Source: a virus
Strand: one strand, 5' to 3'
IMG/VR virus record: IMGVR_UViG_3300042484_001245
Coordinates: 28,931-92,930 of that record
DNA: 64,000 bases
The notes under the pieces are model-generated. The model saw only the letters and a list, made by a program, of their open reading frames with translations. It did not search any database and was not told the DNA's origin. A program made the position numbers and the translations under genes. This document shows, piece after piece, positions 13,126 to 54,056 of the stretch. Numbering within the stretch: the first letter of the stretch is position 1; every line of letters starts with the position of its first letter.

Positions 13126-13305
13126 ATGACAGCTAAGAATGAAAAGTCACTCATCAGAAAGGCACTTGAGTCTATTTCTAATGGAAACGCCACGGCGTTG
13201 AAAAAGAACATTAAAGAGGCACTTCTTTCCAAAGTTCGTAGAGCACTCAACGAAAAAGAGAAAGATCTTGCTAAGACAATTATCAACGACACAACAAAAA
13301 AGTAA
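13126..13305 (+). CDS. Small prohead core protein (gp67-like), 59 aa, missing from the ORF track
   Basis: ATG after aggag and an ACTAAATA box; MTAKNEKSLIRKALESISNGNATALKKNIKEALLSKVRRALNEKEKDLAKTIINDTTKK; position between gp20 and gp21. Confidence 0.7.
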   Translation: MTAKNEKSLIRKALESISNGNATALKKNIKEALLSKVRRALNEKEKDLAKTIINDTTKK

Positions 13306-13309
13306 GCAC

Positions 13310-13969
13310 ATGAAACTTATTTGCGAAGTTACAGAAGAAATCAAAGTAATCAAAGAGGGTGCAGAAACAGACCCTAAAAGCTATTACATTGAAGGTGTCT
13401 TCATGCAAGCGGAGATCAAGAACCGCAACGGACGTATGTACCCTGAAGAAATGCTCAAGAGAGAAATCGAGCGTTACAATGTTGAATACGTTCAAAAGAA
13501 ACGTGCGTTTGGTGAGTTAGGACATCCAGATGGACCTACAATCAATCTTGATCGTGTATCACACATGATCACTGAGCTTCGTCATGAGGGTGCAGACTTC
13601 ATAGGCAAGGCTAAGATTCTCAGTACACCAAATGGAAATATTGTTAAAGCACTTATTGATGAAGGTGCACGCCTTGGCGTGTCTTCTCGCGGAATGGGCT
13701 CAATCAAAACTGAAGGGCGCGATGTGCAGATCGTACAAGATGATTTTTATCTTGCAACAGCAGCCGATATTGTGGCAGACCCTAGTGCGCCTGATGCGTT
13801 TGTTAATGGGATAATGGAAGGTAAAGAGTGGGTATGGCAGAACGGCATACTCTGTGAGCGTGATATTCACGATATGAAGAAGCGCATTCAAAAAGCTCCA
13901 GCTAAGAAGATCAAAGAAGTAAGTGTGCAAGCATTTGAGAGCTTCATCAGGAAACTCGAAAAAAAGTAA
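13310..13969 (+). CDS. gp21: Prohead protease gp21
   Basis: YIEGVFMQAEIKNRNGRMYP, GELGHP, LGVSSRGMGS, DIVADPSAPDAFV. Confidence 0.96.
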   Translation: MKLICEVTEEIKVIKEGAETDPKSYYIEGVFMQAEIKNRNGRMYPEEMLKREIERYNVEYVQKKRAFGELGHPDGPTINLDRVSHMITELRHEGADFIGKAKILSTPNGNIVKALIDEGARLGVSSRGMGSIKTEGRDVQIVQDDFYLATAADIVADPSAPDAFVNGIMEGKEWVWQNGILCERDIHDMKKRIQKAPAKKIKEVSVQAFESFIRKLEKK

Positions 13970-28495: not shown

Positions 28496-30697
28496 ATGTC
28501 AAAACGCATATCATCAAAAGAAACACTTGCTAAGTTGATGGCAACGGAAAACATTTTCGTTGAACACGCTAACGTACCAACGGCTGGTTTCGATCTTATC
28601 AATCGACGGTTGCTTCTCCCTAACTGGAAAAACATCTCCGATGATGTGTACACACTTCTGATTTCGCATGAAGTTGGTCACGCTCTTTACACTCCGACTA
28701 AAGAGTGGGAAGATGCTATTCTCAAGTCTAAAGACATGAATCTCAAACAAGTTGTAAACATCGTTGAAGATGTTCGCATTGAGAAGATGATTCAACAAAA
28801 GTTTCCTGGTACTACTCGTGCCTTTCGTTCTGGATACGATGAGTTAGAAAAGTCCAATCTCTTCGGTACAAAAGATCGTGAGATTACTTCATACGGATTG
28901 CTCGACCGTCTTAACCTTCATTTCAAGATCGGACACTTTGGTTATGCTAACGTTCCGTTCTCTGATAAAGAACGACCTTGGCTTGATCGTGTGTCAGGCT
29001 GTAAATCATTCGCCGATGTTCTCAAAGTAGCAACCGAGTTAATGGAATTCGTTGAGCAGAATCCTGAATCGCAAGGTGATCCTCAAAAGAATCAAGATGG
29101 TGAGGGTGACTCATCTGAGAATGTCCAGATGAGTGAAGACGGCAAGCCTGGTGATAATCAGATTAGTGGTCAACAGTCACGATCACGTTCAATGCGTGGC
29201 AGCCGTTCAGAAGATGGTGAACAAGAGTCACAGGCAGCATCTGGACAATTAGGTGATGACTCATCAAACGAGAAGAGTCAAGATAGTGATGCCGATGGTG
29301 CCAGCTCCGACTCTCAAGAGGGTAATATCTCTGAGACTCAAAAACATTTTGATTCTGCGATTCAGGGACTTGTCGATAAGTCAATCTCTGATACAAAGTA
29401 TGCTAACTTTCCTGAGATCCAACTTGATAAGTTGATCGTTCCTTACAAGACCGTTCATGAGCAGATCACATCGTTCTACTCTAATTACTACTCCACGATG
29501 TATAATCAAGCCTCACAACAGGTTGATCAGTTTCGTAACAGTAGCAAGAATGTTGTGAACCAGTTAGCTAATATCTTTGAGATGAAAAAGAAGGCTAAAC
29601 TTGATGTCAAAGCCCTTACATCCAAGACTGGTAAACTTGACATGAATCGTGTACACTCATACCGCTACAACGATGACGTGTTCAAAAAAGTTACTACAGT
29701 GCCACAGGGCAAGAATCACGGTCTTGTGATGTTCATCGATATGTCAAGCTCGATGAGCGAGAACCTTGCTGGTACGTTTGAGCAATTGCTTAATCTCGTA
29801 TTGTTCTGTAAGAGAGTGAACATTCCGTATGACGTATACGGATTCACTGATTCGTATAGTGCTCGTCGCAATCTTCCTGCACACCCAACTAAGAATGGTT
29901 CGTTGTACTTTGATCCACACTTCTGTCTCCGTCAATACTTCAGTAGCAGAATGACTGGACCTGAGTTTAATCAAGCCCTTCAGAATGTAATATGCCTTAT
30001 GCGTCACTACTCTGGACAGTTGATGAGTGGTCTTCCTTCAGAAGAGATTCTGAACACTACTCCACTTGTTCCAGCTATCATGACTGCAATACCTCTTGTT
30101 CAGAAGTTTCGTCGTGATTATGGTCTTGATGTTGTCAATACGATCTTCTTAACTGATGGTGAAGACACTCACGGACTCTTGTATCACTCTAACACTGGTG
30201 ACACAAAGTATTTTGCGTGTGACCGTTATGGATTTAACCGTGTTACTGAGAAGTATTTTGTTCGTGATGTAAAGACTCGTAAGCAATGGGAAGTTAAGAA
30301 CACGACAAACGATATGCTCAACATCCTTCGTGAGACGGCTGGTGTAAAGACTATCGGCTTTCACATCATTCGTAAGAGAGATGTACCATACGTTGTTGGA
30401 CGCTACACAAAGAACACAAAAGAAGAACAAGCACACGTTGAATGCTTCAAGACGAACAAGTTCGCCGAGATGACTAACATCCCTGGCTACGATGCGTACT
30501 ACTTGATTCCTTCTGGATCGAGTCTCAACGTTGGCGATGACGAGTTCGAGGGTAACGTTGACACTACTGTTGATTGGGACGATGAGAAACAAGCAAAGAA
30601 GGCGATGAAAGCCGTTCAGAAAAGTTTCAACAATTTCATGAAACAGAAAGTTACCAGCCGAATCCTTCTCAACCGCTTTATCGAGCATATTTCATAG
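28496..30697 (+). CDS. CobT-like protein: N-terminal HExxH domain, acidic linker, C-terminal vWA domain
   Basis: HEVGHA..NIVEDVRIE; MIDAS DMSSSM; FLTDGE. Confidence 0.85.
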   Translation: MSKRISSKETLAKLMATENIFVEHANVPTAGFDLINRRLLLPNWKNISDDVYTLLISHEVGHALYTPTKEWEDAILKSKDMNLKQVVNIVEDVRIEKMIQQKFPGTTRAFRSGYDELEKSNLFGTKDREITSYGLLDRLNLHFKIGHFGYANVPFSDKERPWLDRVSGCKSFADVLKVATELMEFVEQNPESQGDPQKNQDGEGDSSENVQMSEDGKPGDNQISGQQSRSRSMRGSRSEDGEQESQAASGQLGDDSSNEKSQDSDADGASSDSQEGNISETQKHFDSAIQGLVDKSISDTKYANFPEIQLDKLIVPYKTVHEQITSFYSNYYSTMYNQASQQVDQFRNSSKNVVNQLANIFEMKKKAKLDVKALTSKTGKLDMNRVHSYRYNDDVFKKVTTVPQGKNHGLVMFIDMSSSMSENLAGTFEQLLNLVLFCKRVNIPYDVYGFTDSYSARRNLPAHPTKNGSLYFDPHFCLRQYFSSRMTGPEFNQALQNVICLMRHYSGQLMSGLPSEEILNTTPLVPAIMTAIPLVQKFRRDYGLDVVNTIFLTDGEDTHGLLYHSNTGDTKYFACDRYGFNRVTEKYFVRDVKTRKQWEVKNTTNDMLNILRETAGVKTIGFHIIRKRDVPYVVGRYTKNTKEEQAHVECFKTNKFAEMTNIPGYDAYYLIPSGSSLNVGDDEFEGNVDTTVDWDDEKQAKKAMKAVQKSFNNFMKQKVTSRILLNRFIEHIS

Positions 30698-46310: not shown

Positions 46311-46346
46311 ACATAAATAATTGGTTGTGTGAGACTGATACGACCA

Positions 46347-47570
46347 ATGAGAACATTTAGACAATACATAACTGAATCTGCTGATAAGAATACTCATCTT
46401 GAGCATTTGGAAGATGAGGTATTCAATGGTGGTGTCAACGGCACTCGTAGAGCTATCAATTTTTTGAGAGGTCTGCGTGATATGCTTTCTGGAAGCAGCA
46501 CATCATCAGTCAACGTTACGGTTAAGTGGGACGGAGCGCCTGCAATCGTTTGTGGTATCAATCCAGAAAACGGTAAGTTCTTTGTTGCAACAAAGAGCGC
46601 ATTCAATAAGACACCAAAGCTCAACTATACACATGATGATATTGAAAAGAACCATTCTGGTCAGACAGCTCTTATTGAAAAATTGCGCATAGCTCTCGAC
46701 AATCTTTCCAAGCTAGGTATCAAAGGTGTTCTTCAGGGTGATCTTCTTTTCACAAAAGGTGAATTGCAAAACATCGAACACAGCGGCGAGTCACTTCTTG
46801 CATTTAGAGCAAACACAATCACGTATGCTGTTCCACAAGATTCAGATCTTGCAGATACAATTCGTGCAGCTAACATAGGCATCGTGTTTCACACAACGTA
46901 CACTGGCAACAAGATTCAAGATATGAAAGCGTCATTTGGCGCAAACGTTTCATCACTCAAGAAGACATCGAGTGTATGGGTTACTGATGCAGATTTCAGA
47001 GATGAATCTGGAACAGCAACACTCACAAAAGATGAGACGGCATACGTTACAGCACGTCTTAGTGAAATTGGCAGACAGTTCAATAGAATGGACTCAGCCA
47101 TTATCAACGAGATCGTAACTGATGACGAACTTATTGCATTCGTAAAAACTTATGTGAACGCTAAGGTAAAAGTTGGTGAGAACATCACTGGCACACAAAA
47201 GTACGCAAAGGGTCTTGTTGAATTCATCACAGACAAGTATCAGAAAGAGATTGACAAGCTCAAGACAGAGCGAGGAAAACAAGGTCGTAAAGAGCGACTA
47301 AATGCACACATATCTTTCATCAAAACAAATCGTGAGCAGTTAATTTTGATGTTCTTAATTGCAGCACTGATTGCTGATGTGAAAGGTGTTTTGTTGAGCA
47401 AGCTACGCAAAGTCAATTCTATTGGCACGTTTTTAGAGACGCCTGATGGTTTCAAAGTAACTTCGCCTGAAGGCTTCGTTGCAGTAGACCACTTGAAGGG
47501 TAACGCAGTTAAACTTGTTGATCGTCTTGAATTCAGTAGAGCAAATTTCACACTCGACAAAGGTTGGTAG
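46347..47570 (+). CDS. Ligase-fold nucleotidyltransferase-like protein with capsid-targeting leader
   Basis: Leader MRTFRQYITE; KWDG, TKS, QGDL, EGFV, VKL motifs. Confidence 0.7.
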   Translation: MRTFRQYITESADKNTHLEHLEDEVFNGGVNGTRRAINFLRGLRDMLSGSSTSSVNVTVKWDGAPAIVCGINPENGKFFVATKSAFNKTPKLNYTHDDIEKNHSGQTALIEKLRIALDNLSKLGIKGVLQGDLLFTKGELQNIEHSGESLLAFRANTITYAVPQDSDLADTIRAANIGIVFHTTYTGNKIQDMKASFGANVSSLKKTSSVWVTDADFRDESGTATLTKDETAYVTARLSEIGRQFNRMDSAIINEIVTDDELIAFVKTYVNAKVKVGENITGTQKYAKGLVEFITDKYQKEIDKLKTERGKQGRKERLNAHISFIKTNREQLILMFLIAALIADVKGVLLSKLRKVNSIGTFLETPDGFKVTSPEGFVAVDHLKGNAVKLVDRLEFSRANFTLDKGW

Positions 47571-47572
47571 AC

Positions 47573-48289
47573 ATGAAACGTTTCAAAGTATTCATTACAG
47601 AGTCACACGACGATCTTCATGAAGATGCTGAGTATCAAGGTAAGAAAGTTACTTTGAACAAGCCATTCAGAACTCCAGATGGACCAAAGAAATTTTCTGT
47701 GTATGTAAAGAATGACAATGGTAACGTTGTCAAAGTCAACTTCGGTGATCCCAATATGGAGATTAAGCGTGATGATCCTGAGCGTAGAGCAAATTACAGA
47801 GCACGCCACAATTGTGATGATCCCGGACCTAAGTGGAAAGCAAACTACTGGTCATGCAAGATGTGGTCTTCAAAACCAGTCTCTAAGATTGCAGAGAATG
47901 TTGATGTGTCTCAAGCCGCAAAACTGTTCTCTAAGTTTTTGAGAACTACTGGTGCTCCAGACAAAGTTTCTACATTCACATCGACAAAGAAAAATGTGTT
48001 CAAAGGGCAATCAGCTAAATGGGAATACGTTGTTGATATGGACAAGAAAACTGTATCGGCACGTCAACGTTCTAGCATGAATGATGCTGTGTATGTGTGG
48101 GATGATAAGACTAACGCAATTAAAATTGTTGAGTCTAAGACCAACTTAACTGAAGCAGCACCACCTGACGCAGAAGTTGAGCAGTGGATTAAAGACAACA
48201 AAGAAAGATTTAAGAAAGAGTATGGTGCAGAAGAGGGTGAAAAGATTCTCTATGCAAAGGCTTGGAAAATGTATAATGATAAAAAGTAG
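47573..48289 (+). CDS. Multi-module putative internal head protein
   Basis: Leader MKRFKVFITE; modules V.FGDPNM..RR.NYRARHNC..YWSC and FKKEYG..ILYAKAWK. Confidence 0.65.
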   Translation: MKRFKVFITESHDDLHEDAEYQGKKVTLNKPFRTPDGPKKFSVYVKNDNGNVVKVNFGDPNMEIKRDDPERRANYRARHNCDDPGPKWKANYWSCKMWSSKPVSKIAENVDVSQAAKLFSKFLRTTGAPDKVSTFTSTKKNVFKGQSAKWEYVVDMDKKTVSARQRSSMNDAVYVWDDKTNAIKIVESKTNLTEAAPPDAEVEQWIKDNKERFKKEYGAEEGEKILYAKAWKMYNDKK

Positions 48290-48541: not shown

Positions 48542-49599
48542 TGAAAAGTTTTGTTGAATACATCACGGAGGCTAATCCAGTTGTCGATAAACAATATCGC
48601 AGCGAAGCCCTGCACGTATTCAATCGAATTATTGCCAAGCTAGAAAATCTAGTCAAAGCAAAATCAACACAGCACATGAAGATTGAGCAATCGACTCGAT
48701 CTCCTGTTTTGTATTTTGATCTTGGTGAATTTCTTGGTGATGGTCGATACAAAGGTGTTAGACTATCATTTGATAGTGTCAATCGCAATTATGGTGGGGC
48801 GTACGGCAATGAATATGGTAAAATTGAACTTGTTCTTGCCATTATGAACATGAGAAAGGTGCGAGATCCTAAATATAAAATGACCAACACCTCATATGAT
48901 GATCATAATGGTTGGGAGTATTCTCCAGCATTTCTTAATTGGGAGGACTCAAGTAATTATGAACACCTTTTGGATACTATAAAGAGAAAGAAAGAAGAAG
49001 TGCGAGACGTTTTTGTTCATGAGTTTATTCATCACATGGACACATTTCGATACAAAAAGTCTGCATACAAATCAGAGCCATCATACAACGACAGAACTGG
49101 CTACGGTCAAGAATATTTCAATCATCCAAAAGAGCTGAACGCCCACACACAAGAAATGATCATGAATATTGATGAGTGGTATAAAACATACTACCTCAGT
49201 ATCGCTACAACACTCAAATCAAATTTTGTAAAGAAGTTTAACTCGGCAAATAATCAAGACCAATATGAAGATGCGATGTTTCTCGCTCATAAGTTTGCAT
49301 TGAACTACGATATGTTTGTTCAATACATTTCGGACAAAAATTTTGCCATAAAAGAGATTAGAGAAAAGATACCTAGAGGAAAACACATTTTCGGAAAACA
49401 CTTAACGGTTGATAACAAGAAAAAGGTTTTAGCTAGACTGTATCAATACTATGATGAAGTGTTGAAGAAGAGGTTTCAGCTTCTTAAATCTACGCTAGAT
49501 AAATTACCAAAGCAATTAAACAATCCAGAAGCCGCAGCGTATGTAAAACTTCATGCGCCTGATGCATACAAAACTCTTCGTAAACTGGGTATGAAATGA
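48541..49599 (+). CDS. HExxH metalloprotease-like protein with capsid-targeting leader
   Basis: Leader MKSFVEYITE; VHEFIHHMD and downstream YFNHPKELNAH. Confidence 0.65.
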   Translation: MKSFVEYITEANPVVDKQYRSEALHVFNRIIAKLENLVKAKSTQHMKIEQSTRSPVLYFDLGEFLGDGRYKGVRLSFDSVNRNYGGAYGNEYGKIELVLAIMNMRKVRDPKYKMTNTSYDDHNGWEYSPAFLNWEDSSNYEHLLDTIKRKKEEVRDVFVHEFIHHMDTFRYKKSAYKSEPSYNDRTGYGQEYFNHPKELNAHTQEMIMNIDEWYKTYYLSIATTLKSNFVKKFNSANNQDQYEDAMFLAHKFALNYDMFVQYISDKNFAIKEIREKIPRGKHIFGKHLTVDNKKKVLARLYQYYDEVLKKRFQLLKSTLDKLPKQLNNPEAAAYVKLHAPDAYKTLRKLGMK

Positions 49600-50609
49600 A
49601 AACTTTAGTAGAAGTTGTAAAGAAGAAAAAAGCAGTGTTCGCTTTTGGACGAATGAATCCTCCTACTATTGGTCACGAAAAACTCATCAACAAAGTAATT
49701 GCAGTTGCACGAAAAGAAAACGCAGAGCCGTTTATATTTGTTTCTCATACACAAGATTCAAAGAAGAATCCCTTGTCAAGTAAGCAGAAAGCAAAATACT
49801 TGAGACTTGGAGTTCCAGCAGCTGAAAAACACATCAAAGCAGAATCAACAATCAAAACTCCATTTGATGCTCTTGGTCATTTGATTGATCTTGGCTACAC
49901 TGATGTCATCATGATTGCTGGTGATGATCGTGTTGCAGATTTCAAAAAGTCTATTGGCAGTTATGTTAATCATCCAGATCCTGATAAGAGCTTTGAGTTA
50001 AACTCATTCAAAGTTGTTAGTGCAGGTGCTCGTGATCCAGATGCTGATGGTGCTGAAGGAATGAGCGCAACGAAAATGCGACAAGCTGCGACATCAAATG
50101 ATTTTGCATCTTTCAAGAAAGGTGTGCCATCGAATCTCAGTGACAAGTTTGCTCGTGAGATGTTTGATGAAATTCGCAAAGCTATGCACATTGTTGAAAT
50201 GGTCGAAGAGATTCAAAAACTCAAGAACACTCTCAATATACCACGCAAGAATATGCCACAGATCAAGCGAGAGTTCATACCAGATTTTATTAAGAGACTT
50301 GACAAACTTGGTGTTGACGTTGCAAAGCGTGATGTAAGCGTTCGCACTCTCAAGCCAACACAGTCAGAAGTGAACATGAATAAGGTGCGTGAGAAGCACG
50401 AGAAGTTTGTGAGTGGTAAGAAAGAGCCTAAGCCATTCATCGTATCATACGACAACTTTATATTGGACGGTCACCATCAGTTGTTGGCTCTTCAGACTTT
50501 GGATAAAGACATTAAAGTGCCATGCTACGTCATTGGCATACGAATGAAAGACTTATTGCAGTACGCACATGACTATCCAAAGACAACTTATAAAGACATA
50601 GACGACTAA
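49596..50609 (+). CDS. HIGH-family nucleotidyltransferase (cytidyltransferase-like) fused to a ParB-like domain
   Basis: FGRMNPPTIGH, KNPL, GDDR, MSATKMR; C-terminal LKPTQ..ILDGHH. Confidence 0.8.
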   Translation: MKTLVEVVKKKKAVFAFGRMNPPTIGHEKLINKVIAVARKENAEPFIFVSHTQDSKKNPLSSKQKAKYLRLGVPAAEKHIKAESTIKTPFDALGHLIDLGYTDVIMIAGDDRVADFKKSIGSYVNHPDPDKSFELNSFKVVSAGARDPDADGAEGMSATKMRQAATSNDFASFKKGVPSNLSDKFAREMFDEIRKAMHIVEMVEEIQKLKNTLNIPRKNMPQIKREFIPDFIKRLDKLGVDVAKRDVSVRTLKPTQSEVNMNKVREKHEKFVSGKKEPKPFIVSYDNFILDGHHQLLALQTLDKDIKVPCYVIGIRMKDLLQYAHDYPKTTYKDIDD

Positions 50610-53468: not shown

Positions 53469-54056
53469 ATGAAATCGTTTCGCACATATTTGAAAGAAGA
53501 TGTTGAGGTAGACAGTGACGTTGCGGTAACAACTGCACTTCCTGAAATCTATCTTGATATGGACGAAACAATCGTAGACTGGATGAAAGGTGCTGACGAA
53601 GCTCTTGAGCGAGCTGGCAAGCCATCATGGAATGATTCATACTGGACAGAGAATCACACTGAAGAAGAAGCTGAAAAGATCAAGTGGCAGATTCTTAATA
53701 CTACACCAAACTTCTGGGAGAATCTTGAATTTCTACCTGACGGTAAAGCCCTCTGGAACTTTGTGAAGAAGTACAAGCCACACATTCTCAGTGCCTGTGG
53801 CACACTCGCCACTACGTGTAAGAATGGCAAGAAACGTTGGTTAGCAAAGTTCTTAGGGTATAAAAACCTTGGTAACATTCATCTTGTAAAGCGTTCACAG
53901 AAAAAAGATTTTGCTGTTGTTGATGGTAAGCCCACAATACTTATTGACGATTTCATCAAGAATTGTCAAGAGTACAAAGCTCATGGTGGGCTGGCAATTC
54001 AGCGCACAACTACTATAGAAGTGATTAGTAAATTAAAGCGTCTGGGATTCAAATAA
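53469..54056 (+). CDS. HAD-superfamily 5'(3')-nucleotidase/phosphatase with capsid-targeting leader
   Basis: Leader MKSFRTYLKE; IYLDMDETI, ILS, K, ILIDD. Confidence 0.8.
   Translation: MKSFRTYLKEDVEVDSDVAVTTALPEIYLDMDETIVDWMKGADEALERAGKPSWNDSYWTENHTEEEAEKIKWQILNTTPNFWENLEFLPDGKALWNFVKKYKPHILSACGTLATTCKNGKKRWLAKFLGYKNLGNIHLVKRSQKKDFAVVDGKPTILIDDFIKNCQEYKAHGGLAIQRTTTIEVISKLKRLGFK

Follow-up and report, generated by a model that had tools for sequence, protein, structure and literature searches.

What is the function of a phage protein that begins like the packaged internal proteins of T4 heads and that otherwise belongs to a family of conserved proteins known only by a DUF number? The question is raised by the DUF6267 gene located at positions 46347..47570 (+ strand) of a 64,000-nucleotide stretch of DNA from a T4-like aquatic phage, which corresponds to positions 28,931 to 92,930 of the IMG/VR record IMGVR_UViG_3300042484_001245 and is referred to as a whole as the window. 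Sullivan et al. 2010 compared 16 cyanomyoviruses, and DUF6267 belongs to their core genes, but it is without an assigned function. As judged from structural models and conserved motifs, the gene probably encodes a divergent member of the lysine-nucleotidyl (ATP-dependent ligase) superfamily, which is predicted to be active. With regard to the function as a whole, we lean, with no great confidence, towards a ligase-type enzyme of a family of its own that would be delivered in the capsid and would seal nucleic-acid ends early in infection.

Gene and protein family

The open reading frame (ORF) at 46347-47570 (+) is open without internal stops and encodes 407 amino acids followed by the stop codon. 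An alternative GTG start at 46329, six codons upstream of the ATG, likewise lies in the open frame; the ATG at 46347 is preferred over it because the leader likewise starts at an ATG in the homologues and in five further ORFs of the window. The protein matches the Pfam family DUF6267 (PF19782) with 395.9 bits against a cut-off of 27 (E 2.9e-118), and its residues 15-405 cover profile positions 1-376, which is the full length of the profile. It also matches PHROG 455 (E 1.9e-115). An earlier reading made from the sequence only had stated that such proteins are left as DUF or hypothetical in T4-like phages, with which both databases agree, the PHROG entry being annotated as 'unknown function'.

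In the gene table of Sullivan et al. 2010 the family corresponds to T4-GC71. The GC 71 label is present in the database records of the P-SSM4 and S-PM2 orthologues, and the Syn9 orthologue is assigned to row 71 by that table only, where its coordinates differ. The family is large: its close relatives number over 8000, the matches at E<=1e-3 fall into 2810 clusters at 50% identity, and 466 cultured-phage records match it, nearly all of them from T4-like marine myoviruses. Cultured carriers include Synechococcus and Prochlorococcus phages, the Methylophilales phage Melnitz (47% identity) and the Pelagibacter phage HTVC008M. In a literature search, DUF6267 was named in no paper found, and the same was true of 'cytitidyltransferase', the database spelling used for the product of a neighbouring gene. 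An NCBIfam search with the window protein returned nothing, and a feature search of the ESM Atlas returned unnamed viral clusters only and no Atlas structure for DUF6267.

Ligase-type motifs and their conservation

Six strings had been singled out as ligase motifs in the sequence-only reading, and all of them are present in the translation of 46347-47570 in the order claimed, namely VKWDG at residues 59-63, FVATKS, the proposed motif Ia, at 79-84, VLQGDLL at 128-134, IGIVFH at 177-182, PEGFVAV at 374-380 and AVKLV at 387-391. Their conservation was assessed in a main alignment of 110 homologues, at 36-91% identity, and in a second alignment of 7 sequences reaching 31% identity, which includes Syn9 gp183, P-SSM4_154 and a Pseudoalteromonas phage protein. 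Columns H20, K60, D62, G70, Y160, G178, H182, N271, G376, K389 and N400 are invariant among the 110 homologues, columns H17, E22, G63, Q130, G131, D132, E375 and R393 are nearly so, and the same motif residues are invariant in the distant alignment.

Motif I, KWDG (residues 60-63; 46524..46535, +), has K60 and D62 in 110/110 homologues and G63 in 109/110, and in the AlphaFold2 model it occupies the turn of the beta-hairpin formed by strands 56-60 and 66-71; K60 is predicted to be the lysine that accepts AMP. The motif III-like QGD (46734..46742, +; Q130 106/110, G131 109/110, D132 109/110) lies on strand 128-136, and its last position is Asp in all homologues but one, which has the Glu that is usual in ligases. 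The motif IIIa-like strand IGIVFHTTY (46875..46901, +; strand 177-186) contains the invariant G178 and H182 and has F or W at position 181 in 103/110. Motif IV, PEGFV (47466..47480, +), has E375 in 109/110 and G376 in 110/110, and motif V, AVKLVDR (47505..47525, +), has a single Lys, K389, in 110/110 together with R393 in 108/110. In this order, KxDG, QGD, a strand with an aromatic residue and His, EG and, 14 residues further on, a lysine correspond to motifs I, III, IIIa, IV and V of covalent nucleotidyltransferases. The spacing of motifs IV and V is 14 residues (E375-K389), as compared with 13 in T4 Rnl1 (E227-K240) and 14 in NgrRnl (E312-K326; residue numbers taken from PDB entry titles). 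The possibility that the motifs are chance matches was ruled out by their conservation and by the fold. Upstream of motif I, the N-terminal element HLEHLED (H17, H20, E22, D23; 46395..46415, +) has H20 in 110/110, H17 in 106/110 and E22 in 99/110, and these three residues are invariant in the distant set of 7 sequences as well.

Predicted fold and relation to known ligases

The AlphaFold2 model, built on the alignment of 110 homologues (pLDDT 89.6, pTM 0.83), has disordered residues 1-11 (pLDDT <50), a long helix at 21-48 and a beta-rich domain at 56-215, followed by a six-helix module at 228-354, four strands at 360-390 and a last helix at 393-402. Motifs III, IIIa, IV and V are colinear, each on a predicted strand and each conserved in at least 103 of the 110 homologues. 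The helical module (47028..47408, +; pLDDT mostly >90), with its helices at 228-246, 250-258, 260-275, 284-304, 308-327 and 329-354, places ~125 residues between motifs IIIa and IV, and its residues N271 and K346 are invariant in the distant alignment. In the DUF6267 proteins of Syn9 and P-SSM4 the module is ~50 residues shorter, N271 and K346 being still invariant.

A structural scan independent of Foldseek covered 48,161 chains, with short all-helical chains set aside from the ranking. It placed NgrRnl (5cot, Z 8.1 over 184 residues) at the top, followed by Trl1 (7.7), REL1 (7.6), T4 Rnl2 (7.2), T4 Rnl1 (6.8) and Rnl3 (6.7), with DNA ligases ranking after the RNA ligases. In a second structural comparison, 183-187 residues were aligned to residues 142-339 of NgrRnl (Z 8.0-8.3), the part that contains the mutation sites K170, E227, E312 and K326. 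Foldseek matches in the PDB, most of the top-ranked ones being ATP-dependent DNA ligases, were weak (E 0.06), and in BFVD the first annotated matches after the family members themselves were viral RNA ligases (E 5e-3). Since the structural alignments span model residues 13-403, the nucleotidyltransferase (NTase) domain is split, the helical module separating motifs I-IIIa from motifs IV-V; in the model the domain comprises residues ~13-215 plus ~356-403. On the strength of the models and of motif conservation, we are highly confident that DUF6267 has the nucleotidyltransferase fold of the ligase superfamily. The covalent nucleotidyltransferase fold of ligase type proposed in the sequence-only reading is thereby supported by motifs at conserved positions and by structural neighbours, as the structures nearest to the model are ligases, at moderate scores.

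Known ligase families were compared in turn. The best structural match, NgrRnl (Rnl5 of Naegleria gruberi; 5cot/6vt9; Z 8.0-8.3, rmsd 3.7-3.9 A, 183-187 residues), resembles DUF6267 in having no OB domain and in the equal spacing of motifs IV and V. However, the identity is just 12-14%, and NgrRnl has a separate N-terminal domain, whereas the helical insert in the NTase domain, the Asp of motif III, the one Lys of motif V and the leader are DUF6267's own. The ligase fold is also common to T4 Rnl1 (9do4, Z 6.8) and fungal Trl1 (9r3w, Z 7.7), but the C-terminal helical tRNA-specificity domain of Rnl1 type is absent from DUF6267, and, to our knowledge, T4 Rnl1 carries no capsid-targeting sequence (CTS). 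The nick-sealing RNA ligases T4 Rnl2 and Trypanosoma REL1 have a similar NTase fold (Z 7.2 and 7.6, 180-196 residues); in contrast to them, DUF6267 has no PF09414 match and lacks the C-terminal domain of Rnl2. The T4 DNA ligase gp30 (6dt1) has the superfamily fold as well (Z 5.5), but DUF6267 has neither an OB domain nor a PF01068 match; it is common where gp30 is absent, and both coexist in phage XG4.

At the sequence level these relationships are faint. The hhalign comparisons with T4 Rnl1, run with one sequence or a 36-sequence profile and over the whole length or over N and C parts, gave probabilities <3%, and the DUF6267 alignment against the 36-sequence Rnl1 profile gave a probability <1% (E 0.12). 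The sole stretch paired with T4 Rnl1 joins PEGFVAV...K389 to IEGYVAV...K240 (E227-G228). PF09511, the family of T4 Rnl1, has weak matches in 4/110 members (best E 6e-4). No PF01068 or PF09414 match was found in the window protein or among the families listed for the 110 homologues, PF01653 is absent from the Pfam matches of the same proteins, and PF01068 has no match anywhere in the virus record. With the models taken into account, we read DUF6267 as a new family of the ligase superfamily and not as a member of a known one. Two further sets of matches were rejected: those to eS8 and kinetochore proteins in PDB sequence searches are compositional, arising from the low-complexity helices of the helical module, and the weak Pfam matches SWI2_SNF2 (14/110) and Big_6 were regarded as chance or compositional.

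Capsid-targeting leader and late expression

The first ten residues of the protein, MRTFRQYITE (46347..46376, +), form a capsid-targeting-like propeptide for which a gp21 cut is predicted after E10. The sequence of T4 contains two proteins that begin with MKTYQEFIAE, encoded by the genes that we take to be ipII and ipIII, and the leader keeps the aromatic residues 4 and 7, Ile 8 and Glu 10 of this peptide. In the T4 CTS, residues 4 and 7 serve in targeting, and residues 8 and 10 in processing by gp21 (PMC9026906). Most of the 110 homologues likewise have aromatic residues at 4 and 7, I or L at 8 and E at 10. The leader tag described in the sequence-only reading proved to be real, as six + strand ORFs of the window begin with the T4-type pattern M-[KR]-x-[FY]-x-x-[FYL]-[IL]-x-E (46347, 47573, 48541, 50621, 53469 and 55388). 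The six leader-bearing ORFs are otherwise unrelated and include a HExxH protein, an NT5C-like HAD phosphatase and a DUF5661 protein.

A late-promoter-like motif of T4 type, CATAAATA (46312..46319, +), is located 35 nt before the DUF6267 start codon. The window contains 12 copies of NATAAATA on the + strand (1474, 8734, 10728, 14797, 16026, 17503, 19390, 20902, 46312, 53456, 54052 and 55807) and none on the - strand, and for 9 of the 12 copies an ORF starts 13-43 nt further on, among them the scaffold, major capsid, DUF6267 and HAD genes. This distribution fits that of a T4-type late promoter, and the arrangement suggests that DUF6267 and the genes after it, at least as far as that of a HIGH-motif nucleotidyltransferase (the partner described below), form an operon that is transcribed late. 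As to a possible early expression in cyanophages, sigma-70 scans of the DNA preceding the leaderless orthologues of Syn9 and P-SSM4 gave no full promoter, and a bare TATAAT was visible by eye.

The window also encodes homologues of gp20, gp21, gp22 and gp23, that is, the T4-type portal, protease, scaffold and major head protein. The gp21-type prohead protease (13268..13969, +; PHROG 207 head maturation protease, E 2.3e-83) is the enzyme expected to remove the leader. The pattern of the ten-residue N-terminal peptide and the presence of a gp21-type protease in the genome are alike in this phage and in the case of the T4 internal proteins IPII and IPIII (also IPI and Alt), whereas the cargo here would be an enzyme of the ligase fold; we know of no description of a packaged ligase. 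As to the earlier proposal of a head-packaged RNA/DNA ligase or adenylyltransferase, the fold, the leader, the late-promoter-like motif and the gp21-type protease are all in line with it, and it is the packaging itself that we infer.

Neighbouring and fused genes

In every relative examined, the DUF6267 gene is located just after uvsX and gp41. The next gene of the window (47573..48289, +), which adjoins it, encodes a 238-aa protein with the leader MKRFKVFITE. The N-terminal part of this protein is homologous to the C-terminal ~95 residues of Melnitz-3 gene 18 (L003:6625-8577), the N-terminus of which is a cytidylyltransferase, which provides a further gene-fusion link within the module. The partner itself (49596..50609, +) combines a HIGH-motif nucleotidyltransferase with a C-terminal ParB-like domain (CTP_transf_like E 2.4e-6, ParBc_2 E 8.7e-5). 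Its AlphaFold2 model has a pLDDT of 90.5, and the best Foldseek match of its N-terminal domain in the PDB is NadD (E 6e-7), followed by NadM, human NMN adenylyltransferase (NMNAT) and then PPAT. The partner begins with MKTLVE, a possible short gp21 site and not a full leader.

Among 20 long homologues examined, 10 have CTP_transf_like fused to DUF6267, in both domain orders, and BFVD contains a single 591-aa S-PM2 protein that is a fusion of DUF6267 and the cytidyltransferase. In the older S-PM2 record NC_006820 (p141/p142, L018:3026-4805), DUF6267 lies in two frames with its second half joined to the cytidyltransferase, a split that reflects either a frameshift or a sequencing error in that record. 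Kinases are a second type of fusion partner: in one homologue (P0172) a P-loop domain matching AAA_33 and the PHROG 'polynucleotide kinase' is fused to DUF6267, and in HTVC008M a Zeta_toxin/AAA_33 P-loop kinase gene (L010:3215-3877) is located two genes downstream. As AAA_33 is the Pfam family of the T4 Pnkp kinase domain, these relatives recall the pair of T4 Rnl1 and Pnkp in the tRNA heal-and-seal pathway, although no kinase was seen in the window and none of AAA_33 type in its module.

A leader-tagged HAD/NT5C-like phosphatase (MKSFRTYLKE; 53469..54056, +) matches PHROG 2643, 5'-3' deoxyribonucleotidase (E 1.4e-22), and Pfam NT5C (E 1.2e-4), with no HAD_PNKP match listed at E<=0.01; it is at most a possible end-healing partner. 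A search for a mini PolX (PF14792) gave no match in the virus record or in five reference phages. In the Pseudoalteromonas phage vB_Psh_XG4, DUF6267 (L022:6013-7116) lacks the leader but retains its motifs, and there is no same-strand ORF of at least 90 aa within 3.4 kb after it, hence no adjoining cytidylyltransferase gene, and its record PP712099.1 contains a gp30-type (PF01068) DNA ligase at 139814-140449.

Proposed role and the evidence on virions

It is plausible that K60 of the KWDG motif attacks ATP to form an enzyme-AMP adduct, helped by D132, F181/H182, E375/G376 and K389/R393, and that the AMP is then passed to the 5'-phosphate of a polynucleotide end, which would be joined to a 3'-OH. 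The gene would be transcribed late, the ten-residue T4-type peptide would bring the protein into the prohead core, the gp21-type protease would cut after E10, and the enzyme would enter the host along with the DNA. It may act in a module with the NMN-adenylyltransferase-like enzyme and, in some relatives, with a P-loop kinase of polynucleotide-kinase type. The most likely job of such an enzyme would be the sealing of broken nucleic-acid ends at the very start of infection, with RNA somewhat more likely than DNA as the substrate; that it mends tRNA or DNA broken by host defences is one hypothesis among several.

Virion data from relatives bear on the delivery step. The neighbouring cytidylyltransferase (T4-GC190, 'cytitidyltransferase') is flagged as a virion protein in the gene table of Sullivan et al. 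2010, the proteomic-data column of which draws on the virion proteomes of S-SM1, S-PM2 and Syn9, and it was found in S-SM1 virions (PMC3037559). The same partner was found in S-CREM2 virions (PMC10665884). In Syn9 and P-SSM4 it is the cytidylyltransferase that carries the leader (MKKFSAFLSEA and MKKFSAFLKEA, respectively), and DUF6267 starts directly at the HLEH element. The leader thus tracks with virion presence in cyanophages, which supports its role as a targeting tag. Because the leader is on the partner in cyanophages, packaging of DUF6267 would be specific to certain clades and is inferred for the window, where the DUF6267 protein is probably injected with the DNA.

Several observations weigh against an injected, ligase-type enzyme. 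T4-GC71, leaderless in cyanophages, is without a flag in the proteomic column of Sullivan et al. 2010, and DUF6267 is not among the entries in the parts of the S-CREM2 virion table that were covered (PMC10665884). The idea that the leader-tagged HAD phosphatase forms a heal-and-seal pair with DUF6267 is weak, since the phosphatase is closer to deoxyribonucleotidases than to the phosphatases of Pnkp type. Neither hhalign nor the Pfam scans gave a significant profile link to a known ligase family, and PDB sequence searches with the protein and with the 110-sequence profile gave no ligase. The Z score of ~8 is rated as middling by the structural tool itself, and the Foldseek E value in the PDB is 0.06. 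Motif III has Asp and not Glu, and motif V has one Lys and not two. Finally, the model has neither an OB domain nor motif VI but a single helix (393-402) after motif V, and there is no room for an OB domain because the protein ends 18 residues after K389.

Alternative explanations

The missing flag on leaderless cyanophage orthologues is also what would be expected if DUF6267 were the 'missing' nick-sealing DNA ligase of cyanomyovirus-type (Kyanoviridae) phages. It would then replace T4 gp30 in Okazaki-fragment joining and recombination, and the capsid tag in this clade would merely pre-load the enzyme. Known DNA ligases need an OB domain and motif VI, and DUF6267 has neither, while RNA ligases outscore DNA ligases structurally (Z 8.3 versus at most 6.3); we consider this explanation unlikely. 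Its strength lies in distribution: PF01068 is absent in 8/8 Kyanoviridae (Syn9, P-SSM4, HTVC008M, Melnitz-3, S-PM2, P-SSM2, P-TIM40 and S-CAM3), PF01653 and PF09414 are absent in the 4 scanned for them, with gp30 and Rnl2 showing in the T4 control, and T4-GC71 occurs in 16/16 cyanomyoviruses and 0/10 other T4-likes (Sullivan et al. 2010). The position of the gene just after uvsX-gp41 is in keeping with such a role, and so is the gap itself, on which Clokie et al. 2010 remarked that cyanomyoviruses were without a known g30 homologue and might have a distant one (PMC2984593). When we searched the literature for reports of a DNA ligase in cyanomyoviruses, there was no relevant result. However, in XG4 a PF01068 ligase occurs alongside a DUF6267 whose motifs are intact, so the two enzymes are not simple alternatives. 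Moreover, the window gene follows a late-type motif and bears a packaging leader, and fusion to an NMNAT-like enzyme or a kinase would be unexpected for a replicative ligase.

The fusions with the partner, found in both orders in many phages, also fit an enzyme tied to NAD+. In one version, AMP is taken from NAD+ made by the NMN-adenylyltransferase-like partner, which recycles the released NMN; in another, the pair acts on NAD-related nucleotides or NAD-capped ends and so blunts NAD-depleting host defences. The best structural matches of the partner, NaMN/NMN adenylyltransferases (NadD at E 6e-7, NadM and human NMNAT), agree with this, but PPAT-type enzymes come close in score, so the matches do not pin down its substrate. 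Similarly, the His/acid-rich element (H17, H20, E22, D23) and the helix after it are positioned like domain Ia of NAD+ ligases, a positional analogy only, whereas Pfam scans of the window protein (P0001) and the families listed for the 110 homologues include no match to the LigA adenylation domain and the best structural matches of DUF6267 are ATP-dependent ligases. No NamPT-type gene was seen, with no search aimed at one. In sum, we consider a tie to NAD+ improbable. Less probable still is that the fold is kept in a protein that is no polynucleotide ligase at all, such as an enzyme that nucleotidylates itself or other proteins, or a head-core protein without catalytic activity. The absence of the domains with which known ligases bind their substrates (OB and the C-domains of Rnl1 and Rnl2), in place of which there is an unrelated helical module with the invariant N271 and K346, speaks for it, but the lysine, the acidic residues and the EG/K positions do not vary over at least 2810 clusters, which points to catalysis, and the kinase fusions point to nucleic-acid ends. 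Compared with these alternatives, the favoured explanation remains a capsid-delivered, ligase-type enzyme. In its boldest form, DUF6267 would represent a new class of polynucleotide ligases with an NTase domain, an internal helical substrate module and no OB domain, serving as the long-sought strand-joining enzyme of cyanomyovirus-type phages, which rank among the ocean's most abundant viruses. Often pre-loaded into capsids with its NMNAT-like partner, it would make sealing, possibly coupled to NAD+, available as soon as the DNA enters; this extended proposal is doubtful.

Biological implications

Among the commonest viruses on Earth are the T4-like cyanophages and pelagiphages, together with relatives from fresh water, and the assignment of DUF6267 to the ligase superfamily makes a family that is widespread among them a testable enzyme. 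Known examples of phage proteins that are carried in the head and injected include T4 Alt, the T4 internal proteins and the N4 RNA polymerase. If the proposed delivery is true, a nucleic-acid joining enzyme would join this short list of head-carried enzymes. The unusual domain plan of the protein could interest ligase engineers. The assignment also bears on the published puzzle that cyanomyoviruses are without a recognisable DNA ligase (PMC2984593), and the recurrent fusions with an NMNAT-like enzyme may point to chemistry outside the known heal-and-seal pathways.

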